Below are positions 19,022 through 63,694 of a stretch of DNA of 64,000 nt, piece by piece. The DNA is taken from the sequence record NC_041937.1; one strand, 5' to 3'. A model generated the notes under the pieces. The model saw only the letters and a program-made list of their open reading frames with translations. It made no database searches and had not been told where the DNA came from. Every line of letters begins with the position of its first letter. Within the stretch, counting starts at the first letter, position 1. The translations under genes and the position numbers were made by a program. Source of the DNA: Escherichia phage V18.

Positions 19022-19387
19022 ATGGGTCGAGCTAAAGAAACAAAACGCATGCGTGATGAAGCTAGAGAGGCTCGCAAATCTGATCGCCTGCGTAAGGCTG
19101 CTGAGAAATTTGCTGACGAACGAGAGCACACTGCTCCAGCTCTCCGACCAATGAATAAGAAGCAGCAAAAGTATCTTGATTACCTAGGGTCGCGTAAAAT
19201 TATCATTGTAAACGGAGTGTTTGGGTCTGGTAAAACATTCATGGCATCTGCTATGCAGGTGACCTTCTGCGTAAGAATGAAATTGATAAGATCATTGTTG
19301 CACGTCCTTACGTTCAGACAGGAAAGACTTCAGGATTTAAACCTGGAAATGCAATGCAGAAACTGTGGCCCTATCTTCGAAGCATGA
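19022..19387 (+). CDS. phoH: PhoH-like ATPase, N-terminal segment (frame broken near 19255)
   Basis: Walker A GVFGSGKT; sequence after AMQ is out-of-frame. Confidence 0.7.
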   Translation: MGRAKETKRMRDEAREARKSDRLRKAAEKFADEREHTAPALRPMNKKQQKYLDYLGSRKIIIVNGVFGSGKTFMASAMQVTFCVRMKLIRSLLHVLTFRQERLQDLNLEMQCRNCGPIFEA

Positions 19388-19809
19388 TGGACACGATTTG
19401 TCGTCGTGTTGGCAAAGGTGCTTTTGCCGCAATGCTGGGAGACGGTCAGAACAGCCGTATCGAGATTTGTGAAGTTGAAAGCATTCGTGGTCGTAGTTTC
19501 GATGAGCGATGCTTTGTCCTGATTGACGAGGCACAGCAAACTAACCCTGAAGAAATGTTGTCAATTATCACAAGGATCTCTGATCAAGCCACCCTTGTAA
19601 TTATGGGTGATAATAGCCAACGTGACATCCCTGGTAAATCTGGCCTTGCATGGGTGACGGATTTCTTTACTCGTCATCCAGATCCTGAGGTTGGAATGAT
19701 CAGCTTTGATAGTCCAGACGATGTCGTTCGTTCTGGGTTGGGTCGTCAGATCGCACTCAATCTTATTGAGGATCGTGCAAATCATATTTGGACCCCTGTT
19801 TCCGAGTAA
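19354..19809 (+). CDS. phoH: PhoH-like ATPase, C-terminal segment
   Basis: VLIDEAQ (Walker B) and IMGDNSQRDIPG match PhoH; this frame extends upstream to ~19258. Confidence 0.7.
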   Translation: MQKLWPYLRSMMDTICRRVGKGAFAAMLGDGQNSRIEICEVESIRGRSFDERCFVLIDEAQQTNPEEMLSIITRISDQATLVIMGDNSQRDIPGKSGLAWVTDFFTRHPDPEVGMISFDSPDDVVRSGLGRQIALNLIEDRANHIWTPVSE

Positions 19810-21380: not shown

Positions 21381-21914
21381 ATGACTTGTGCTAGAAAACC
21401 TGATGAACAACGTAACGCCTACGATGAGTATGTGACACCGGAGTGGTGTGCAGAAGGGCTGTATGACCTTATTCCGTTCCCAGAAGACTGGACCTACTTA
21501 GAGCCTTGCAGGAATAGTGCCTCAGGTGTGTTCTACTCCCGTATGCCGTTAGGATCTGCATGGGGAGAAATCCAAGAAGGTGTTGACTATCTGAATACAG
21601 AATACAACCATGTTGACTGTATTATCACCAACCCACCATACAGTTTGGCTCGTGAGTTTGTAGACAAGGCGTTGAAAGATGCTGACGTAGTTATTATGCT
21701 TTTGCGTCTTAATTTTCTGGAAAGCAAAGCCAGATTTGAATGGTGGCTTGATAATGCACCTACCACTGTGATCACAATATCTAAGCGTCCATCTTTTCAA
21801 TCAAATGGCAGAACTGACGGGCAAGCATATGCATATTTTGTGTGGGATAAGAAAAACCGTTTAGGCTTGCCGCCATTTATGTGGTTGGCACCACCAGAGG
21901 TAGACCTGAAATGA
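21381..21914 (+). CDS. small N6-adenine DNA methyltransferase
   Basis: 177 aa; YVTPEW, LEPCRNSASG, IITNPPY motifs; paralog of 7316-7830. Confidence 0.6.
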   Translation: MTCARKPDEQRNAYDEYVTPEWCAEGLYDLIPFPEDWTYLEPCRNSASGVFYSRMPLGSAWGEIQEGVDYLNTEYNHVDCIITNPPYSLAREFVDKALKDADVVIMLLRLNFLESKARFEWWLDNAPTTVITISKRPSFQSNGRTDGQAYAYFVWDKKNRLGLPPFMWLAPPEVDLK

Positions 21915-53720: not shown

Positions 53721-56457
53721 CTGTGATCTGGAACGGGACTCCCATCATTTTAGAAGCTTGCCAGAAGCAATGCACCACCATTTCACCCACAGGGCTCCAG
53801 ATAAGCTCAAGCTTTCCGTCATCGTTCAGGATAGGATCGTACACCGTGTTTCCGTCTCTGTCAACCACTTCGTTTCCGTCCTCATCCTTGCGTGCCTTTT
53901 TGTACTTATGACCGTCGAACACATGAAGTTTGGCCTCCTGCTCTGCCTTAAATGCTTCCAGTTCTTCGATTGTGTCGAAGGTGTACACAGTCTTATACTT
54001 CGGTGTGTCAGGGACTTGAAGCTGATATTCGTCATGGTAATAGATAATACGACGAACACCTTCATCGTACCACCCACGCTTCACCATTTGGTGGTGCATG
54101 AGTATCCCAACTAAGTCACACAGCGATGCACCACCATTCTGTTGGTATGCATTAAGTAAAGAGTGTTTAGATCGGGTCCAGATAGCATGACCATCAAAAG
54201 AGTAGATAAACTTCTTACCCGTTGCTTCCCAGAATTTCTCCAGATCTTCTTTACGCCCCTTAAGACCGGGGTTGGCATCCCAAAGTGCATCGATTACCCT
54301 TTGTCCCAACTCTGGAGAGATGTCCAGCATATCTGCAACTTTATCTTTTTGTGCCCCATACATAACCCCATACGTGATAGGTTTACCGTCGTTACGAGAC
54401 ACCTCTCTGCCTGCTACTTTTGTATATGCTTCAGCATTGTTTTGGTGTGCGTCCCCGTTACTTACAACATCATAATACAATCCGTTGTCGAACTCAAAGG
54501 CACCCCAAGCCCCGATAAGCTGCTCTAAGTTGGACCCGTCAATACCGATCTCAAAGTATCCTGGAGGAACACCCCACAGACTACGCATCTCTTTACCCAT
54601 GACCACTTTAGGAGATGGTTTAGGCATGTTTGCACAAATACTGTGTTTCTGTCGGGAAGTGTTTGTTAACCCAGAGCTTTTAGCAGGAAGCTTATGGTCA
54701 ATCTTCAAACGTGGATGATTAAGAAGACCAGTATCAACCTTATCCTCCTTGATTGGATCAAGTACCGATCTGCGGTTTCGCAATGATAACCACAAGACGA
54801 TATCTTTAGCCATCTCTCCGTTCAATTTTTCAAGATTCGGGCATAGGTGTCCAAACGTATCTTTCAGTTGCGGAGAAGTAATAAGTGCCCTAGCTTTTCT
54901 ACGTATTTTCCCGAATACTTCCTTTTTAATCCTTTCGGAGTTAGGAAAGCTTCGGAACTTGTGCACGGTTGTCTGGAACTTAGCATCAGTTTTGTTCCAG
55001 AAGTTGATAATCAGGTCACAATACTCTGACTCTAAAAGCTCGTCCATATATGCATATACTCGTGCATCAACATCTGCATCAGGTAGAGCTTTCTTCTTGC
55101 TGTCTTTAGTTACATCCTTAGTTCTCCACATTGTCGGAAGCCAACCAGCACTGATCAGGTATCGCTTAATGTCGTCCTGGTTGCTGATTTTCATAGGTAT
55201 CTTGCAGTCCGGCATTCGCTTCTGCTGTAGATCACTTATTGCCTGATCCATTAGCTCTTTAGGTAAAGGTTGTGGTGTGGAGGTGCCCTTAATATAGCCT
55301 CTCAAGAAATCAGCCATCTTATCGGGGTCTTTGCAGCCCATCTCTTCACACCATTTTATCCCCATCTTACTGACATCTCCTGTAGAGGTAAATGCTCGCT
55401 TAGGCGGGGCTTTGAACTCTAAAGCGCTCATATCTACAGGATAGCCAAGCTTATCTTTTAACCATTTCCAACCATTATTGGAGATTGTCCCATCTTGGTT
55501 AAACGGCTTTTCAGGGAACTTGGGCCGCTGAGACATTGACAGCTCTTTTAAAGGTAGTTGCGGTTCAACACGATCAGCGATTTCTTTCATCCACGCATCG
55601 CAACGGTCACGTAAAGCAATAGCTCCATCTATGTCAAAATACACACCCTGACGGGCCTGCAGCTCCATCAGGAAGTGCTGCAGCATGCCTCGGCGTAATG
55701 CGTTCTTCCAGGTGATCTTCTTGAACCCTTTCGGCTTCTCTTTGGCAGGATCGTACATAAAGTTCTGCATGTCAGATTTGCCGTAGAATACACCTTTTGA
55801 TTCCGCTACCAGCTCTTTCCAGAGCAGCTCCTGGATGATAACGTCCTCGAATACACGATCCACATACTTCCACAACGGAAGATCGCGCCAGTCATCAATT
55901 TGAACTTTCTGGTTACCAAGGGCGTAGCCCCATGCCATAAGGCCGTGAGGACCAACAGGTTGCATTTTCTTAGTAACCGGGTTGAATACAGCGTCCGGAC
56001 AACCTTTTGGTAAAGGGCGATCAGGCCACAAGATTCGGCTCATAGCCAACGTATCAAACAGGTTAACCTGGTGGTCGTTGATAGTCCCCATGCATTTAGG
56101 ATCACGGAACATATCAAAATGAATACCGGATAATCTTTCCATCAGCATAAAGTCATAACTGTAGCAGTTATGGCAGTTCAAAGCTGTTGGTGACCAGTCG
56201 GAATTGCCTGTAAGCCAACCTTCCAACTCCGAAAAATCTGCTATGCGAACTTCAAAATCTTTATAAAGAGTTTTCTTTGCCAGAATAAAGTTCTTAGCCT
56301 TTTCTATATCCTCCTCGGAGTAGTGTGTGCGGCTATTTAGAGGAAGGAACAGCATAAAACGGTTCTTATTCAGCTCTTTAAACAGACCGCAGTGATAATA
56401 AAGATCTGGGTCTTCCAGCAAACCGGATGACTCAAAATCGAACGACCACATACTCAT
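53680..56457 (-). CDS. DNA polymerase, family A (Pol I/T7-like) with 3'-5' exonuclease domain
   Basis: 925 aa; N-terminal FDFESSGL (Exo I), motif B-like KPITYGVMYGAQ, motif C YYHDEYQ. Confidence 0.9.
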   Translation of the reverse strand: MSMWSFDFESSGLLEDPDLYYHCGLFKELNKNRFMLFLPLNSRTHYSEEDIEKAKNFILAKKTLYKDFEVRIADFSELEGWLTGNSDWSPTALNCHNCYSYDFMLMERLSGIHFDMFRDPKCMGTINDHQVNLFDTLAMSRILWPDRPLPKGCPDAVFNPVTKKMQPVGPHGLMAWGYALGNQKVQIDDWRDLPLWKYVDRVFEDVIIQELLWKELVAESKGVFYGKSDMQNFMYDPAKEKPKGFKKITWKNALRRGMLQHFLMELQARQGVYFDIDGAIALRDRCDAWMKEIADRVEPQLPLKELSMSQRPKFPEKPFNQDGTISNNGWKWLKDKLGYPVDMSALEFKAPPKRAFTSTGDVSKMGIKWCEEMGCKDPDKMADFLRGYIKGTSTPQPLPKELMDQAISDLQQKRMPDCKIPMKISNQDDIKRYLISAGWLPTMWRTKDVTKDSKKKALPDADVDARVYAYMDELLESEYCDLIINFWNKTDAKFQTTVHKFRSFPNSERIKKEVFGKIRRKARALITSPQLKDTFGHLCPNLEKLNGEMAKDIVLWLSLRNRRSVLDPIKEDKVDTGLLNHPRLKIDHKLPAKSSGLTNTSRQKHSICANMPKPSPKVVMGKEMRSLWGVPPGYFEIGIDGSNLEQLIGAWGAFEFDNGLYYDVVSNGDAHQNNAEAYTKVAGREVSRNDGKPITYGVMYGAQKDKVADMLDISPELGQRVIDALWDANPGLKGRKEDLEKFWEATGKKFIYSFDGHAIWTRSKHSLLNAYQQNGGASLCDLVGILMHHQMVKRGWYDEGVRRIIYYHDEYQLQVPDTPKYKTVYTFDTIEELEAFKAEQEAKLHVFDGHKYKKARKDEDGNEVVDRDGNTVYDPILNDDGKLELIWSPVGEMVVHCFWQASKMMGVPFQITGEYLCGRNWGDCH

Positions 56458-56515
56458 ATACAGTTCTCCTTAAAGGGGAGGCGGTTGTACTACCCCTCCC
56501 ACTCTTTGTTAAACA

Positions 56516-58222
56516 TTAAAAAGGCGTTTCATCATCCTCAAAACCAGGGACCGGGTCAGAGGATGGATCATCGTACTGGAGGTCTTCCTGCGTGTCAACA
56601 GGCTTAACAGTAGGAGTTACAACCTTATCAGCCACAACCTTGCCCATAGGTGTTTCTACAACTGCATGCTCCTGATCCTCAAACATAGCCTGAGGTCTCC
56701 AAACAACCTCCCCGCCTTCTCCGTCTGTAAACATTTGCATTTCTTTGTCCCAGTACCAATTACTGGCATCATGGAACTTACCTGTGTGCGGGTCCATAAC
56801 CAAAGTGTCAGCAATACCTAGAGTTTTTGCTGGACGGTTTTTAAGACCTACCAGACGGACACGTCCACGAGAACGATCCACCATTTCTTCGGCCTCGACA
56901 CCTATGACTACCCAACTCAACTGTTCAAGCCCAGCCGATCCTCGCAAATTCTCTTTTCGCACAGGATACCAGAAAGGTAACGGGTTACCATCCTTGTCCT
57001 TAGGAGGCACAATCTCTGTACGTTTGAGGTGAGCGATCACCAAGATAAACACATTAAACTGCTTACAAAACGCAGCCAGTTGGGTCATAGCCATGTCCAG
57101 TTCTTTTCGCTCATCCTTAACATTAAGCCCTGAAATTACCATGGACAGGTGATCCAGCACAATATAACGACAATGGTACAGGCAAACCATTTGCTTAAGC
57201 TTGGTAATCAACTCGTCCACCGGAATAGACCCGAAATGTTTGAACACTTTGATTTTTCCAGCTTTTGCCCATGATTGGTGAATCTCTGCGTGTTCTTGAT
57301 CAGTTAAAAACTGGCTAGGATCTTCAACAAACTCTTTAACATCAAACCCTAACTGGTTTGCATACAAGGAGTTAATTGCTTCCTCTGGGTCCTCCTCAAG
57401 ATGGATCATGCATAGACGATCATCCTCTTCATAGTCATCAGCCTTCGGGCATGTCGGGTCCATTAGGTATCTTGCAATACAGTGTTCCAGTTTTTTAGCC
57501 ACGGTTGTTTTACCGCCCCCTGATGGCCCTGTAAGCATTACGAGTGTCCCTTTGTGCAAGCCTTTTAGCATTTTTTGCAGTTTTGGGAACTCTGCGCTGA
57601 TATCTACCCCGTTGGAAGTCTTTTTCCGCAAAGACTCGATAGAGAAGTCTTCTAAATCCGACACAGCATCAGGCACATATTTAACAGGATGCCGGAACAT
57701 GTTGACAATATCTTCCAGCTTTTTAGCCTTCAGCATGTCACGGATATCTTTTACACCGTCAGGATCGTTTACCTCACCGGGGTATTCTACGTGGTAAACG
57801 TTATCAGCCATCAAAAATGCTGCAATATTGTGCGTGGCCTCGACACCTTTAATGACGTGTTTTTGCTTCTCTACCTCGTTAGCTGCATCGTTATCCATTG
57901 CCAGCACAACTGTTCCATAGCTACGGATAAACTTCTCATTGTTTGCAAAAGTATCTACTGCGTTTGCACATCCACAGTTAATTCCAACAAAAGGTAGGCA
58001 AGGTTTTCCTGCCAGATCACCACCGTTGATAACTGCGTCGATCCCGTCCTGGACCTCTTTAGCCCACTGCTTCACCTTTGCCGGGGCTTTAGCGTTGGTG
58101 AGAATCCCTTTTACTTGTATCTGATATGCAGCCTGCCATGCTGCAATAACATCACCTTCTCCCTCACAAACGTTAATCTGCTTACGGTTGTTGGAAGATG
58201 CACACAGCTTTTGACCAAACAT
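56516..58222 (-). CDS. primase-helicase (T7 gp4-like): TOPRIM plus DnaB-family helicase
   Basis: 568 aa; TOPRIM VLAMDNDAANE; Walker A TGPSGGGKT; acidic C-terminus ending EDDETPF. Confidence 0.85.
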   Translation of the reverse strand: MFGQKLCASSNNRKQINVCEGEGDVIAAWQAAYQIQVKGILTNAKAPAKVKQWAKEVQDGIDAVINGGDLAGKPCLPFVGINCGCANAVDTFANNEKFIRSYGTVVLAMDNDAANEVEKQKHVIKGVEATHNIAAFLMADNVYHVEYPGEVNDPDGVKDIRDMLKAKKLEDIVNMFRHPVKYVPDAVSDLEDFSIESLRKKTSNGVDISAEFPKLQKMLKGLHKGTLVMLTGPSGGGKTTVAKKLEHCIARYLMDPTCPKADDYEEDDRLCMIHLEEDPEEAINSLYANQLGFDVKEFVEDPSQFLTDQEHAEIHQSWAKAGKIKVFKHFGSIPVDELITKLKQMVCLYHCRYIVLDHLSMVISGLNVKDERKELDMAMTQLAAFCKQFNVFILVIAHLKRTEIVPPKDKDGNPLPFWYPVRKENLRGSAGLEQLSWVVIGVEAEEMVDRSRGRVRLVGLKNRPAKTLGIADTLVMDPHTGKFHDASNWYWDKEMQMFTDGEGGEVVWRPQAMFEDQEHAVVETPMGKVVADKVVTPTVKPVDTQEDLQYDDPSSDPVPGFEDDETPF

Positions 58223-58239
58223 CTGGGAGTTGGCCTTTA

Positions 58240-58509
58240 CTATGCTACTACAGACCAGTGCCCTTTCTGCTCTTTCGGCTTAGACCAGTCACGCTTTTTG
58301 AAACCAGACAGATTTCCGTAGCGGTCGTAATATGGGAAATATGTTGCAGTGACTGTCACACCGTCTTCTTGGGACAATGCTGATCGCACACCAAAATATT
58401 GTGCAGCCATCAGACCGATATTTTGTTGTGGGACAGGGACAATTTTAGTATTTTCTAAAACAGTCTCTACAGTTTCAACCTCTTTTTCATCACGATAGTC
58501 TCGTTTCAT
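58240..58509 (-). CDS. primase RNA-polymerase-domain N-terminal segment, frame-separated from the primase-helicase
   Basis: RSALSQEDG...YDRYGNLSGFKKRD resembles the T7 gp4 segment YSALTARGIS...YRDQNGNIVSQKVRD; no Cys4 zinc-binding domain. Confidence 0.55.
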   Translation of the reverse strand: MKRDYRDEKEVETVETVLENTKIVPVPQQNIGLMAAQYFGVRSALSQEDGVTVTATYFPYYDRYGNLSGFKKRDWSKPKEQKGHWSVVA

Positions 58510-58582
58510 ACTACCCCCACTTTTGTATCTTGTTGCAACTGGGTTAGGTTCTCCATAGCGGCTATATGCAGAGGATATAAAC

Positions 58583-59368
58583 TTATTCCCCTCTCCTTAC
58601 TACAGGCTCGTTTGCTAAGAATACAGCTTTTGCCCAGCCACGTGGTGTGAGGCTTCGAATCATCTTCGTTCTTGCACTCTTTCCACCAAGCTTGGCGTGT
58701 TGCATGGAATACCCGCTAACCACGTCAACTATTTGCGGGACAGGTTTTGTGTCCGGGATTATAAATCCATTACCTATCCAGCCGCAAGTTATTTTTGGAT
58801 AGGCATCACGTGGAGCTATAAATTCAGGAAACCATGGGTTTACATCATCCTCAGGTAAATACCCGCCATAGTCAGAAGGATGAAAACGGTAATCAGGTTT
58901 GCGCCACAGTGTGGACATAACACCAACAGGATTCTCTACATGCCACGGGCAATCGTAAATCTCTCCCAGCTCTTCCGCAACCCGAGCATCCTTTACAGCA
59001 TTAATTTGGATCATGGGGTCCTTAGCCAGCTTTTTCTTAAAATGTGCAGCACCCGATACCGCTAAATGCGTGCACGGAGGAAATGCAAGAATAAAGTCTG
59101 GAGCTGGATACATGCAAAAAGTTTCCTGAGGGAACCACGGGTCAATCCAATAGTCAACATAGTGAATGTTGGGATGATCGGTTATCACCTCTGCATAACT
59201 GCCGTGATCAGCACCTTCTGCGTTAAAGCACAGGCACAGATATCCAGCTTTTGCCCAGTCAATGACTGCACCACCAGACCCGTCAAATAGACTCCACACA
59301 ACACCTTTGTGGTAGTGTTCTTTGTAGATAAATTTCAATTTGCTGTCTCCTAATGCAAAAAGCCCCAC
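58583..59368 (-). CDS. putative DNA cytosine-5 methyltransferase-like protein
   Basis: 261 aa; SLFDGSGG (motif I-like), FPPCTH (PC motif), HVENPVG (ENV motif). Confidence 0.5.
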   Translation of the reverse strand: MGLFALGDSKLKFIYKEHYHKGVVWSLFDGSGGAVIDWAKAGYLCLCFNAEGADHGSYAEVITDHPNIHYVDYWIDPWFPQETFCMYPAPDFILAFPPCTHLAVSGAAHFKKKLAKDPMIQINAVKDARVAEELGEIYDCPWHVENPVGVMSTLWRKPDYRFHPSDYGGYLPEDDVNPWFPEFIAPRDAYPKITCGWIGNGFIIPDTKPVPQIVDVVSGYSMQHAKLGGKSARTKMIRSLTPRGWAKAVFLANEPVVRRGE

Positions 59369-59389
59369 CCTTTCGGGCAGGGCCTAGTG

Positions 59390-59872
59390 TTAAACCCGGA
59401 TACCTATTGTATACTCGGTGGATACCAATGTCAAATCTAAATTTAAAATTTCTTGCATCTCATAATATGCGTCCAGGGTGAGATACATTTCCCCATCCTT
59501 TTCTACATACTTGTCCAAGTGCTTGAGGCATTTCGGATAACTATCAAGTGCAGCTTTCAGACACTCAAATTCTGTGCTGTTGATGAATCCTTCCATCTTA
59601 GCTACCCGTTCTGGAGTAACGATAGCACTGTAGTGAGATTTAGCTTCCTGAATGCAATGGGTCCAAGCATCAACTTTCTCTTCAAAAAGTCCGAAGAACT
59701 TCTTTTTGGTGAGCTTCAGATTCTTTAAGTGCTTAAGCACTCGGTTGCCGATCACAGCTACATCACGAAACTTAAGGATCACTTTGTCGATATCCTCGCG
59801 GCCTATTTTCACAAAGCAAGCCTCGCACATTTCAGGAGTGGCATAGCCTACTTTCCACATAAAATCTGACAT
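59390..59872 (-). CDS. hypothetical protein
   Basis: 160 aa ORF. Confidence 0.4.
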   Translation of the reverse strand: MSDFMWKVGYATPEMCEACFVKIGREDIDKVILKFRDVAVIGNRVLKHLKNLKLTKKKFFGLFEEKVDAWTHCIQEAKSHYSAIVTPERVAKMEGFINSTEFECLKAALDSYPKCLKHLDKYVEKDGEMYLTLDAYYEMQEILNLDLTLVSTEYTIGIRV

Positions 59873-59884
59873 AGCACTCTCTCC

Positions 59885-60280
59885 TTATTCCTGAAAAGCA
59901 ACGATATCATATGAACTTGCAGATGATCCTGGTGAAGAATGACTCCAGTCTAGGTCATCAGAGTAGTCAGCGTACTGTGCACCACTACGTAGTTTGTATT
60001 TTACCCACTTACCTGGTGCAGGGTTTTCACCACCTTCCCATACTTCCCAGCCTTCTGGCAGGCCGTCCTGGGGGTAGTCATCCACCTCACTAATAATCTT
60101 AGGGTTTGGCACCAAGATCCCCGCAGGCTCTTCCTTCCGGATAAGTGTCCACACAGCGCAGGTGTCTGAGCAGGCGCATGATAGCAAAGTATATCCACTA
60201 TTCAGAACTTCTGCAAGCTCTTTTTCAGCATCTTCTAATTTGGTTAAGTGGTATTGGATAATCTTCACACCTGTAATCAT
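59885..60280 (-). CDS. hypothetical protein
   Basis: 131 aa ORF. Confidence 0.4.
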   Translation of the reverse strand: MITGVKIIQYHLTKLEDAEKELAEVLNSGYTLLSCACSDTCAVWTLIRKEEPAGILVPNPKIISEVDDYPQDGLPEGWEVWEGGENPAPGKWVKYKLRSGAQYADYSDDLDWSHSSPGSSASSYDIVAFQE

Positions 60281-60624
60281 CAGAAACCTCCCACTTCTTC
60301 AGCAAATGCAGCTGCTGTCGTCGCTGCATCCAGATAGGACTCTAGTTCACGGGATGCACGTTTGTAAATTGAGTGGCGCATATCGTTTGGCAGTTGGTGG
60401 AAGTCCACCTCTTCACCGTTGTGGTAAACATGCACATCGGTAATTTGTCTAAATCCGTAATAGTCAACATCAGAATCACGGCACTCTGGGTCTGGCAACT
60501 GGACAACTGCCTGAGCTTCCACAGTGAACATATCGTCAAGTTCGAAATCGATTTCAAAAGTGTATGGTTTATAACGTTTCATCATTTGATTGTGCTCTTT
60601 ATTGATCAGACTTATCTTTCGCAA
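60280..60624 (-). CDS. hypothetical protein
   Basis: 114 aa ORF. Confidence 0.4.
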   Translation of the reverse strand: MRKISLINKEHNQMMKRYKPYTFEIDFELDDMFTVEAQAVVQLPDPECRDSDVDYYGFRQITDVHVYHNGEEVDFHQLPNDMRHSIYKRASRELESYLDAATTAAAFAEEVGGF

Positions 60625-61924
60625 TTAAGGTCGGGGTAAGTTTGTAATAACGGAAGCCACCACCACCTTTCCAGTTTACAGACTTAGAAATACCACCTTG
60701 ATCTTCGCCATCGATCACTTTTTCCAAGCGCGGAATAATATGGGTATGACAATGATCACCTAGCTCGATTGAGATCCAACGTCTTTTCATCTTGTGAGCT
60801 ACAGCAGCAGTAGTTCCCGAACCACCGAATGAATCCAATACCAAATCGCCTTCTCGCGTACACATTTCTAAAATCCGCTTCAAAAGAGCTTCTGGTTTTT
60901 TCCCATTTTTGAAACTGACGCCGCCTTCATTTGCTATTCCATTCCAACTAATGTCTGTCCAAACATCAGTTATTAGTTCCGCAGGTTGCATCTCACCGTC
61001 AATTTCCAAAAGTCTATTGGAGTAAAAGACCATTTGCCTACCATTTGCGATATAAAATCCTTCAACATCCTCATTTGGATGTACATAAACCTTATCCCTA
61101 TCTTTCTTTGACTTCTCGATAGTTTCTTTTCTCTTTATTTTAGCACCACCACCAATTGCAACAGATTGAAATACACGTTCTGCATTATCAGTTGCGAATT
61201 GTGCTAATTCATCATCGAATGTATCAGGCAGTTTTTTCTTGGCTTCTTTTGCATCTTTATAACCATTGGCCTTTGCAAACGCATCGGCAATACCGCACCA
61301 CGTCCAATTTTTATAATGGTCATCCGGGTTTAATAGGTATTTGTTATATCCTGTATCATACCCTTTAGGTATATAGATTTTGTTAAGCGGTTTCTGGGTG
61401 CGATCTTTTGCATATACAAGCAAAAAGTTTGCTGTGGAGAAAACTGTGGCTCCTGTTGCCTTAAATCCCGAAGGGGAATTTGTGGTCATCGATATGGTAT
61501 TTAACTGATTTGCACGACCAAAAATCTCGTCCATCAAAACTTTTAAATACGCCATTTCGCAATCATCTAAGTGAACGAATATTACCCCATCATCACTTAG
61601 AAGATTACGAATTATTTCTAACCTATCCCTCATTAAGCCCAGCCAAATGGAATGCTCCAGGCTATCATCGTAGTGCTCAAAAGCCCTTCCGGTATTGAAT
61701 GGTGGGTCTATGTAAACACACTTCACTTTGCCTGCATACTCTTGCTCTAGCGCCTTCAATGCTAATAAGTTATCTCCAAAAATCAGTTTATTATCAAAAA
61801 TATCGTTTTCGGTCACTTTCTGGCTGTGGTAAGACTTGCTAGAATCCTCTAACAAAATGTGCGGCTCTAACTTTTTGCGCTCGTTTTTACCTATCCAGGT
61901 AAGTTCTAATTTGGTTTTGCTCAT
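60599..61924 (-). CDS. DNA N6-adenine/N4-cytosine methyltransferase, type III Mod / ParB-methylase-like
   Basis: 441 aa; YIDPPFNTG (DPPF motif) upstream of LDSFGGSGTT (SAM-binding); N-terminal ELTWIGK. Confidence 0.8.
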   Translation of the reverse strand: MSKTKLELTWIGKNERKKLEPHILLEDSSKSYHSQKVTENDIFDNKLIFGDNLLALKALEQEYAGKVKCVYIDPPFNTGRAFEHYDDSLEHSIWLGLMRDRLEIIRNLLSDDGVIFVHLDDCEMAYLKVLMDEIFGRANQLNTISMTTNSPSGFKATGATVFSTANFLLVYAKDRTQKPLNKIYIPKGYDTGYNKYLLNPDDHYKNWTWCGIADAFAKANGYKDAKEAKKKLPDTFDDELAQFATDNAERVFQSVAIGGGAKIKRKETIEKSKKDRDKVYVHPNEDVEGFYIANGRQMVFYSNRLLEIDGEMQPAELITDVWTDISWNGIANEGGVSFKNGKKPEALLKRILEMCTREGDLVLDSFGGSGTTAAVAHKMKRRWISIELGDHCHTHIIPRLEKVIDGEDQGGISKSVNWKGGGGFRYYKLTPTLIAKDKSDQ

Positions 61925-61985
61925 CGTTTGGTGCTCTCCTTAGTTTTTGTGGGGAGGAGTGCCTCCCCTTTATACTCACATCTTA

Positions 61986-62327
61986 CTACTCAAGGTCTTC
62001 AGAGTCAAGCTCAAAAAGAATCAAACTGTGCATGCCTGCAGAGAGATTAACACACCCTGCAACAATAAGGGTTTGATAGTAAGGTTCAGCACCCTCAATG
62101 TCTTCGTTAAAATCCACAACAAGGTAGTCACCTTTGTTAAAGGTGTATTTGTCCGATGTAAACGCAAAACCTGCCCAGTCCCCTACTGCAGGATCTTTAT
62201 CAGTCACCTTTGTTAGCAGTAGATCTTTTTCACGAGATCTTTTAGTAAAATCGTGAATCACAACATCCTTCTCTTCAGGAGTCGGATTGCCACACACGTA
62301 GTTAACGATATTTCTCCACAAACTCAT
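61986..62327 (-). CDS. hypothetical protein
   Basis: 113 aa ORF. Confidence 0.4.
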   Translation of the reverse strand: MSLWRNIVNYVCGNPTPEEKDVVIHDFTKRSREKDLLLTKVTDKDPAVGDWAGFAFTSDKYTFNKGDYLVVDFNEDIEGAEPYYQTLIVAGCVNLSAGMHSLILFELDSEDLE

Positions 62328-63694
62328 ACGTCCCCCTCTTCTGCTCTGGTTTCAAAATCTTTCCTGACAATTTTGTCTAAGTCAGGGAATGTTGTATTGT
62401 AAAACTCTACGACTCGCGGGTCAACAATAATGTCAACTTCTCTTAGCGGACGCAACAAGTTTATTCCTTGTATTGTCTTAACTCTACTCAAAGCGACATA
62501 CGTCATCCCAGGAGAGAAAGCTCCGTTCTTTCCAAGGTCTAGGTTGTAACAATCTAGCGTAAGTCCTTGACTTTTATGAGATGTTACGGCGTACCCAGAT
62601 TTCAGAGGAAGTTGCTTGTATGACCCAATCACTACCCTCTCTATAAACTTCTCCATCTTCCTTTCTGCAATGTTGTATCTCTGAGATGGCTTATACTCGT
62701 TATTCTCCCACAACCTCTGCTCTATGTCAACCTGTGTTCCATCTTCAAGCTCTACCACCACCGCCTTGTTCTTAAATTTAACAATCGTGGCACGTGTTCC
62801 GTTAACATAATAAGGTACTTTGTGCGTCGGGTCAACATCGTTGGCGGTTATCATAACTTTCATGCCAATTTTCAACTTCATCTCCTGCTCAACTGGCAGG
62901 GTGGAGGGAAACTTACCCTTCATTTCACCAGTGTATACCTTCTCTGGGGCGTTGATGGCATCATAGAACCTTCTGTTCACTTCCTCTGCTTGTTTGTTGG
63001 TGGCGCAAATTGTGAGAGCATCTGTTGGTACACCACCTTTGTAACAGCGAGCATTAAGTTCTGCTACAACCTCTTTTATGCGACGACCCTCACGAACACA
63101 GTTGAGCATTGTGGCAAATCGAATAGACTCCTGTCGGAACTGATCTATTAGGGCTATGTTGTGGAGGTCAAGCTCTTTCCAAGATTCGGTATAGCAACAC
63201 AGGTCCGTATGGTAGAAGTTGAAATAGGCTTCCTTCTCCATAGAAGAGACAACAGGAGGTGCCTGGTAAAAATCGCCAAACAATATGACCTGTATGCCTC
63301 CGAAAGGTTTGTCATTTTTTCGAAGGAAGCGGAGTTTCCTATCCATCTCTATAAACTTATCAGCGCGGATCATAGAGATTTCATCGATAATTAGGATGGT
63401 AAATGCCTTGCTTTTCAAAGGCTTTGCTGTTTTTGCCCTTATTGCGGTCCAGTCTGACTCCATGCTCACACCTGCTGCAAGATCGAAGGTTCGGTGTGCT
63501 GTTGCTCCATTAACGTTTAAAGCGGCTACCCCTGTCGGGGCAACCGTTATGCAAGAGTCTCCATACATTGACTGGATCATGTTGATGAGATACGTCTTCC
63601 CACAACCTGCAGGCCCTGAAACGAAGACATTCTCACCACTCATGATTGCAACGAGGGCAGCATCTGTGCCTACATCATACTGCCCTTTTTCCAT
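62324..63694 (-). CDS. SF1B DNA helicase (Dda/RecD-like)
   Basis: 456 aa; Walker A VSGPAGCGKT, IIDEISM, TSHKSQGLT, YVALSRV. Confidence 0.8.
   Translation of the reverse strand: MEKGQYDVGTDAALVAIMSGENVFVSGPAGCGKTYLINMIQSMYGDSCITVAPTGVAALNVNGATAHRTFDLAAGVSMESDWTAIRAKTAKPLKSKAFTILIIDEISMIRADKFIEMDRKLRFLRKNDKPFGGIQVILFGDFYQAPPVVSSMEKEAYFNFYHTDLCCYTESWKELDLHNIALIDQFRQESIRFATMLNCVREGRRIKEVVAELNARCYKGGVPTDALTICATNKQAEEVNRRFYDAINAPEKVYTGEMKGKFPSTLPVEQEMKLKIGMKVMITANDVDPTHKVPYYVNGTRATIVKFKNKAVVVELEDGTQVDIEQRLWENNEYKPSQRYNIAERKMEKFIERVVIGSYKQLPLKSGYAVTSHKSQGLTLDCYNLDLGKNGAFSPGMTYVALSRVKTIQGINLLRPLREVDIIVDPRVVEFYNTTFPDLDKIVRKDFETRAEEGDV

Follow-up and report, generated by a model that had tools for sequence, protein, structure and literature searches.

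A core Dcm-like cytosine methyltransferase gene and a truncated type III Mod gene of probable host origin in the replication arm of Escherichia phage V18

Methyltransferase genes in the analysed genome region

The window analysed here is a 64,000-nt stretch of the genome of Escherichia phage V18 (NC_041937.1). Between positions 58583 and 61924, its minus strand encodes two predicted DNA methyltransferases: a short Dcm-like C5-cytosine enzyme and a 441-aa protein resembling the Mod subunit of type III restriction-modification (R-M) systems. Two further methyltransferase-like genes lie on the plus strand (Table 1). Positions 58000-62500 were found to share 97-98% identity with more than 80 published genomes of Vequintavirus (rV5-like Escherichia phages), including rV5/V5, slur16, FV3, EmilHeitz and WalterGehring, and the first 25 kb of the window showed the same relationship. 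Judged by these alignments, the window is part of the genome of an ordinary rV5-like E. coli myophage, and the two minus-strand genes lie in its replication-gene arm. In the direction of transcription, the minus-strand genes are arranged as follows: a Dda-like helicase, a 113-aa open reading frame (ORF), the 441-aa methylase, three small ORFs, the short C5-like gene, a primase/helicase and DNA polymerase.

Table 1. Predicted features of the window and their coordinates
Feature	Position	Strand	Description
Short Dcm-like C5-cytosine DNA methyltransferase (predicted)	58583..59338	minus	251 aa; TTG start
Orphan beta-class N6-adenine DNA methyltransferase (predicted)	60599..61924	minus	441 aa; DPPF ... 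FGGSGTT; type III Mod without the C-terminal Res-contacting domain
Accessory cassette of probable host origin	60588..61937	.	Similar start-region repeats on both sides (CATCATTTGATTGTGCTC and CATCGTTTGGTGCTC)
Gamma-class N6-adenine methyltransferase gene (predicted)	7316..8132	plus	YTNP ... EPSAGRGSF ... NPPF; 272 aa in relatives
177-aa methyltransferase core (predicted)	21381..21914	plus	Intact; invariant TNPPY, degenerate motif I, no target-recognition domain
Three small conserved genes	59390..60585	minus	160 aa (59390-59872), 131 aa (59885-60280) and ~100 aa (60280-60582/60585); between both methyltransferases
Terminator-like hairpin and T-run	59350..59385	minus	11 pairs, 7 of them G-C; separates the 160-aa gene from the dcm-like gene
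Sigma-70-like promoter match	59406..59434	minus	TTGACA-17-TACAAT, 11/12; about 20 nt upstream of the hairpin

An initial annotation of this DNA had pointed out four methyltransferase-like genes in one window. All four are indeed methyltransferase-like, but one of the plus-strand genes is disrupted here, and the ORF pointed out is only a fragment of it. All four carry annotation in relatives, and methylase genes are labelled in dozens of these genomes; in the BASEL records, the 441-aa gene is labelled 'putative N6 adenine methyltransferase' and the short gene 'Dcm-like C5 cytosine methyltransferase', and E. coli phage BME3 has been reported to harbour 'four CDSs' for methyltransferases (PMC12210895). 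Methylase genes have been present in rV5-type genomes since the first of them was sequenced. The co-occurrence of four such genes is an ordinary, already known feature of a well-sampled phage genus, and its observation as originally worded adds nothing new. The initial description was right for the most part, apart from several details.

The two minus-strand ORFs were confirmed at 58583-59368 (261 aa) and 60599-61924 (441 aa). No restriction-endonuclease-like partner of these genes was found in the six small ORFs adjoining them, most of which were searched with Pfam, NCBIfam and PADLOC. For the plus-strand methylase genes, no restriction partner was detected in three neighbouring ORFs scanned with Pfam and PHROGs only.

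The short Dcm-like protein

The mechanically derived ORF of the dcm-like gene extends to a GTG codon at 59368, which lies inside the terminator-like hairpin (59385-59360), in its descending arm. In the WalterGehring annotation, translation starts at the TTG at 59338, which is preceded by AGGAG. For these two reasons the true length of the protein is taken to be 251 aa, not the 261 aa given previously; residue numbers below nevertheless follow the 261-aa ORF. The protein contains motif I (FDGSGG), motif IV (FPPC, with Cys99) and motif VI (ENPV, with Glu145). The first two of these had been read correctly in the initial annotation, whereas its 'ENV' proved to be ENP (HVENPVG). In an alignment of 20 homologues, FDGSG was nearly invariant, C99, E145, N146, P147 and V148 were invariant, and an RDxYxK block and a C-terminal GGKSxRTKxIRSLTPRG block were conserved. 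No large target-recognition domain (TRD) was found; between the RDxYxK and GGKS blocks there are only about 25 variable residues of lower prediction confidence (about 205-228).

Pfam, NCBIfam and PDB sequence searches with the 261-aa protein returned nothing significant. In particular, it remained below the gathering threshold of PF00145 (22 bits), while three homologues with 55-56% identity to it (P0052, P0067 and P0070) scored 24.7-28.5 bits, with matches spanning motifs I-IV only. Because these searches were empty, identification was based on PHROGs, structure prediction and the literature. The protein matched PHROG 757, 'DNA methyltransferase', at 9e-87, and its predicted fold is that of a DNA C5-methyltransferase, the best structural match of the model being the catalytic domain of DNMT3B, which has a small TRD. 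Compared with the classical bacterial C5-methyltransferases of PF00145 (E. coli Dcm, M.HhaI and M.HaeIII), the window protein is about 75-220 residues shorter and has no recognisable large TRD. Motif IV is followed by Thr-His in the window protein, by Thr-Asp in most family members and by Asn-Asp in DNMT3B, and not by the classical Gln.

The description of this short protein as atypical was not borne out, since it belongs to a common phage family: there are 3543 database homologues of about 225-260 aa, and PHROG 757 is represented in 1504 phage records with Escherichia, Klebsiella, Salmonella and other hosts. In Vequintavirus itself, 115 records contain it at 95% identity or higher, so that it is essentially a core gene there. 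The ratio of nonsynonymous to synonymous substitution rates (dN/dS) was 0.01-0.06, which indicates strong purifying selection. One family copy in an E. coli prophage adjoins genes for Dam, NinG, RusA and an antiterminator-like protein, the arrangement usually seen in a lambdoid nin region.

A member of this family has been characterised experimentally. The trigger of retron Ec86 (Eco1) is the 711-bp 'Dcm' gene of phage K42, a close relative of phage KarlJaspers (Bas06) (bioRxiv 10.1101/2023.08.16.553469; the study is also cited as Cell Rep 2024 43:114857). Wild-type K42 Dcm raised the level of 5-methylcytosine (5mC) on the multicopy single-stranded DNA (msDNA) of the retron, as measured by liquid chromatography coupled to mass spectrometry (LC-MS), whereas the C82A/E128A/K175A/K176A mutant did not (bioRxiv 10.1101/2023.08.16.553469). 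The KarlJaspers Dcm, also encoded by a 711-bp gene, aligned with the window protein over its full length (BLASTP 5e-86, 54% identity over 235 residues), and C82, E128 and K175 of the K42/KarlJaspers protein correspond to C99, E145 and K192. The proteins share their size class (236 versus 251 aa), the FDGSG, FPPC, ENP, RDxYxK and GGKSxRTKxIRSLTPRG motifs and a DNMT3-like predicted fold. They differ in the type of the variable segment between GNGF and GGKS (GYSxQHxKL versus DNPGWxKT); therefore, the recognition site may differ as well. The carriers are also different, a Drexlerviridae siphovirus in the case of K42/KarlJaspers Dcm and a Vequintavirus myovirus here.

The initial annotation had allowed that the short C5-like protein might act on a different substrate. 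An enzyme of this kind would form no 5mC on DNA and would instead modify RNA or transfer another group, for example, a carboxymethyl group from carboxy-S-adenosylmethionine (Cx-SAM), as phage CmoX does. This explanation is most improbable. The predicted DNA C5-methyltransferase fold and the 54% identity to KarlJaspers Dcm speak against it, as does the LC-MS result for the related K42 enzyme, which was obtained in cmoA+ E. coli with 5mC on DNA as the product. Additionally, CmoX-type enzymes are marked by an Arg at the position of M.HhaI Asn304, and CmoX systems bring their own phage cmoA and a ligase; neither of these two genes was annotated in the examined regions of relatives.

Statistics of site avoidance in the 64-kb window pointed to no recognition site: CCWGG occurred 121 times against 147 expected, and GATC was not avoided. 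Several 6-bp palindromes were strongly depleted relative to the Markov expectation, namely GGCGCC (0 versus 7), CGATCG (1 versus 9), TGGCCA (1 versus 6), and GCTAGC and CCCGGG (0 versus 4 for each). This depletion is consistent with some avoidance of restriction sites, the sample being small.

The Mod-like protein and its C-terminal truncation

PF01555 was the sole significant Pfam family of the 441-aa protein (1e-42), and the DPPF and FGGSGTT motifs noted earlier are both present, in this order, which is that of a beta-class N6/N4 methyltransferase with a central TRD. The best PDB matches were the type III Mods 6k0w and 4zcf. The PADLOC model MTase_III (PDLC03636) matched at 1.5e-204, covering only model positions 2-444 of 575. 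No match to the ParB/Srx nuclease-like domain (PF02195) was obtained in Pfam at E-values up to 0.1. Hence, of the designation 'type III Mod/ParB-methylase-like', the type III Mod part was retained and the ParB part was dropped. The neighbours of the protein are 100-113-aa proteins of unknown function and a superfamily 1 (SF1) Dda-like helicase, and no res gene is adjacent.

The C-terminus of the phage protein (...YYKLTPTLIAKDK-SDQ*) aligned to residues ~515-521 of EcoP15I Mod. In EcoP15I, the methyltransferase domain ends at residue 516, the C-terminal domain (CTD; residues 539-644) makes extensive contacts with Res, and the Mod2 dimer without Res is an active methylase (PMC4490356). Since the phage protein ends at about EcoP15I residue 520, before this CTD, it keeps the catalytic and recognition parts and has lost the part that docks Res in EcoP15I, with its end placed at the domain boundary. 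Compared with type III Mods such as EcoP15I Mod and E. coli WP_024226319.1, it has the same beta-class motif order, DPPF and an N-terminal LTWxGK segment, but lacks the CTD of ~126 aa, has no accompanying phage res gene and is encoded by a single-gene cassette between replication genes.

Origin and distribution of the Mod cassette

An E. coli chromosomal Mod of 567 aa (P0243, with 334 member sequences) showed 96% amino acid identity over 99% of the phage protein (residues 1-~437). For bacterial homologues that are further removed (60-75% identity), lengths of 570-600 aa predominate. At the DNA level, window positions 61937-60590 were 94.2% identical to E. coli mod, from 14 nt before the ATG to about codon 450. 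The E. coli gene is located directly upstream of a gene for a 910-912-aa protein that matches the PADLOC model REase_III at 9e-191, and the E. coli Mod matches MTase_III over its whole length. In this pair (Mod WP_024226319.1 and Res WP_024226320.1, carried for example by strain SMN152SH1), res follows mod immediately, unlike in the phage.

The host pair belongs to a defence island together with a DrmD-like SNF2 helicase, AbiD and AbiU. Mod and Res both matched the type III models of PADLOC from end to end, and on this basis the donor locus is treated here as a type III R-M system inside a defence island. Two other assignments of this locus were considered and rejected: the gene set differs from that of ARMADA II, and the only match to MADS is that of the small helix-turn-helix (HTH) protein to MAD1. 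This MAD1-like protein (NCBIfam antiphage_MADS1, 82 bits) is encoded in the island (L009 3919-14464; L016 2115-11464) along with an AbiU/AIPR protein. The SNF2 helicase scored 698 bits, below the DISARM cut-off of 950. The combination of an SNF2 helicase with a type III pair may be a composite defence system not yet described as such.

Among Vequintavirus records, the cassette was found in 86 of about 116-118. In MiataMamis, the stretch corresponding to 60588-61920 of the window, that is, exactly the Mod gene, is missing. The EmilHeitz copy differs by one gap column in the alignment, and its annotated product is shorter (344 aa), which is consistent with a frameshift. Such a distribution could be taken to mean that host DNA was captured by accident and that Mod is now a non-functional relic in decay: all the bacterial homologues (~570-600 aa) are longer, about a quarter of relatives lack the gene, one has it frameshifted, and published R-M panels show no protection by it. 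However, dN/dS between the phage copies of the window and of SYGMH1 was 0.078 at a synonymous divergence (dS) of 0.31, and 0.11 was obtained against the E. coli gene (about 0.08-0.13 overall), which indicates purifying selection. Moreover, none of the catalytic motifs is damaged, and the protein is cut off exactly where one domain ends. A contig of a related phage (L015, Logan SRR16894903, 7089-11886) also has a copy of this length class (444 aa; P0245), with 84% identity, at a different locus flanked by PhoH and ClpP. A relic is therefore very unlikely.

In the same contig, the slot after the ClpP-like protease, where the window has its 177-aa methylase, contains a gene for a 295-aa Dam (PF02086). 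From this replacement it may be concluded that, in these phage genomes, methylase genes are exchangeable cassettes occupying fixed slots. Not every Mod homologue of ~440 aa is phage-borne: P0245 is, whereas the contig with P0290 looks bacterial and the gene has another neighbour there. These data suggest, but do not establish, that phages have lost the CTD recurrently.

The dS of 0.31 between the two phage copies exceeded that between either copy and the E. coli gene (0.19-0.22), and the ends of the copies differ, being KDKSDQ* in the window and KDRFDSEEDL* in SYGMH1. Taken together, these sequence differences hint at more than one exchange of Mod between host and phage.

More distant orphan Mod-type genes with variable ends are carried by Campylobacter phages; the genuine ones (CPX and F379) match the window Mod at only 38-41%. 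About 13-20 MG0656xx records with C. jejuni as the host (for example, MG065655, 'Campylobacter phage C2', and MG065662, 'A142') are 98-99% identical to E. coli Vequintaviruses across these genes; mislabelling or contamination of the assemblies is the most likely reason.

Orphan methyltransferases that phages acquired from their hosts have been described (review by Murphy et al. 2013, as cited in PMC12210895; lactococcal 936-phage example, PMC4190342). As far as these sources describe them, they resemble the present case in being single methylases without nucleases, patchy among close relatives and presumed to protect against a matching host R-M system. What sets the V18 cassette apart from the general picture in these sources is that a donor can be named at 94% DNA identity and that the capture dropped the nuclease-docking domain.

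Proposed functions of the two enzymes

The data are best combined as follows. The core Dcm-like enzyme most likely flips out cytosine and forms 5mC at a short motif on replicating phage DNA. The cassette Mod would stem from the capture of mod from a type III R-M system of E. coli and would act as a stand-alone N6-adenine methylase with the specificity of that system. Progeny DNA would then carry the 'self' mark of the host type III system whatever the previous host, while the phage Mod itself, having no CTD, would be unable to recruit the host nuclease subunit. This combination of a short core 5mC enzyme and a captured, CTD-less stand-alone Mod is considered probable. The gene identities, the fold, the homology, the truncation point, the boundaries and distribution of the cassette and the purifying selection are shown by the analysis, whereas enzymatic activity, recognition sites and protection are inferred. 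The likely interaction from which the cassette would benefit the phage can be named: it is that with the E. coli type III system whose Mod has been copied.

Several observations weigh against this interpretation. K176, one of the four residues mutated jointly in the K42 study, is replaced by Ile in the window protein, and the CCWGG recognition site was assumed by analogy in the retron paper and not mapped (bioRxiv 10.1101/2023.08.16.553469). The Mod cassette is dispensable, as about 26% of relatives lack it and EmilHeitz has a frameshifted copy, and the E. coli system that looks cognate is rare, occurring in 24 of 5426 complete genomes of this species. The effect of CTD loss on Mod activity is extrapolated from EcoP15I, to which the phage protein is only distantly related. 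No methylome or activity data for Vequintavirus enzymes were found, methylomes having been sought in the rV5 genome paper and in BASEL-related literature. Finally, Vequintavirinae were described as 'exceptionally susceptible' to the R-M systems tested in BASEL (PMC8594841). These systems do not include the putative cognate system of Mod; in view of such sensitivity, any protection must be narrow.

The initial annotation had interpreted the four genes as a heavy investment in epigenetic self-protection. A targeted, Mod-specific form of self-protection is plausible, given the 96% copy of a host Mod maintained under purifying selection. 'Heavy investment' and broad protection were overstated, considering the susceptibility in BASEL, the lack of the cassette in about a quarter of relatives, the EmilHeitz frameshift and the disruption of one of the four genes in the window.

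The same susceptibility bears on a different explanation, according to which the methyltransferases, especially the core Dcm-like one, serve the biology of the phage itself, in the timing of replication or packaging, in transcription control or in labelling phage versus host DNA so that a phage nuclease can tell them apart. As a core gene, the dcm-like gene lies among replication genes and overlaps the start of the primase/helicase gene in relatives; it is under strong purifying selection, yet Vequintavirinae are highly sensitive to R-M; and in Drexlerviridae, methyltransferase content was not linked to restriction resistance (PMC8594841). Against this, neither a regulatory target nor a phage function that depends on methylation is known or can be seen here, and the PHROG 757 family also occurs as a moron beside Dam in the nin region of a lambdoid prophage, a position typical of accessory anti-restriction genes. 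A role in phage biology is considered rather unlikely, and neither this explanation nor that of a relic Mod or of a product other than 5mC on DNA is favoured by the data.

A further role of the truncated Mod can be imagined, that of a dominant-negative anti-restriction protein forming heterodimers with the host Mod. Heterodimerisation is thinkable because the phage protein shares 96% identity with the host Mod and still has the methyltransferase domain and the short N-terminal segment matching the EcoP15I dimer interface, but such a role is quite unlikely. If it existed, a phage subunit in the DNA-reading (ModA) position, without the Res-docking domain, would disarm the host type III enzyme at the first infection, before protective methylation, and the recurrence of ~440-aa versions in other phage contexts would reflect selection for CTD loss.

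With its donor at 94% DNA identity and a cut at the Res-docking boundary, the Mod cassette is a clean natural experiment. Natural alleles are available in collection phages, namely intact (Bas51 WalterGehring), frameshifted (Bas49 EmilHeitz) and absent (MiataMamis), and would make it possible to distinguish protection by methylation alone from added interference with the host complex.

The Dcm-like enzyme, by analogy with K42, may be a liability to the phage because its family triggers retron Ec86. Membership in this family predicts vulnerability of therapeutic rV5-like phages on hosts with the retron, such as BL21, and possibly on McrBC+ hosts.

Plus-strand methyltransferase genes and frameshifts

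Both plus-strand genes show the features of gamma-class N6-adenine methyltransferases: motif I precedes NPPY/F, and the catalytic fold resembles that of M.TaqI. Of the two small N6-adenine enzymes reported initially, one is left as an intact gene, at 21381-21914 (177 aa), since the ORF at 7286-7741 (151 aa, with NPPF) is only the N-terminal part of a frameshifted gene of 272 aa, the remainder of which is found in the ORF at 7674-8132. The split is explained by two 1-nt deletions near 7684 and 7690, where A6-T-A-T6-G-C reads A6-T7-C. These deletions were found in none of 118 relatives, in all of which the gene is intact, and the intact slur16 homologue matched PADLOC MTase_II (PDLC03255) over its full length at 3e-34. 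In comparison with M.TaqI-type gamma-class enzymes and phage Dam (PF05869), the 177-aa protein consists of a bare catalytic core in which motif I is degenerate and a TRD is missing, and the 272-aa gene is frameshifted.

Compared with close relatives, two other conserved genes of the window are interrupted as well. PhoH is divided into 19022-19387 and 19354-19809 by a 1-nt deletion at 19252, and the primase/helicase gene falls into two parts, 56516-58222 and 58240-58509, showing several small indels and lacking 9 nt at 58586-58593. The frameshift sites in PhoH and in the primase gene are not homopolymers. The three frameshifts represent either real inactivating mutations or assembly errors.

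Small genes and intergenic signals around the dcm-like gene

The 160-, 131- and ~100-aa genes between the two methyltransferases correspond to PHROGs 12900, 11995 and 4240, all of 'unknown function'. No Pfam, NCBIfam or PADLOC family was matched by their products, and none of the libraries searched gave a methyltransferase or nuclease assignment. All three genes are kept in MiataMamis, although the Mod gene is absent there. The 160-aa gene, located upstream of dcm, was considered as a candidate for a Vsr-like repair nuclease, such as the one encoded beside E. coli dcm, and was rejected, having no support in Pfam, NCBIfam or PADLOC.

In relatives, homing-endonuclease genes occupy the gap between the dcm-like and primase genes (EmilHeitz; L001 722-1456) and that between the primase and DNA polymerase genes (WalterGehring; L002 1583-2254). 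At the equivalent sites of the window, 58583-58600 and 56457-56516, they are absent.

The stretch with the promoter match and the hairpin (59350-59434) is identical in WalterGehring and MiataMamis. As promoter-like sites overall were not above the shuffled expectation, the sigma-70-like match serves as a lead only. The order of the two elements, a promoter followed by a terminator just before the dcm-like start, is unusual and could represent a leader or attenuator for the dcm/primase/polymerase unit.

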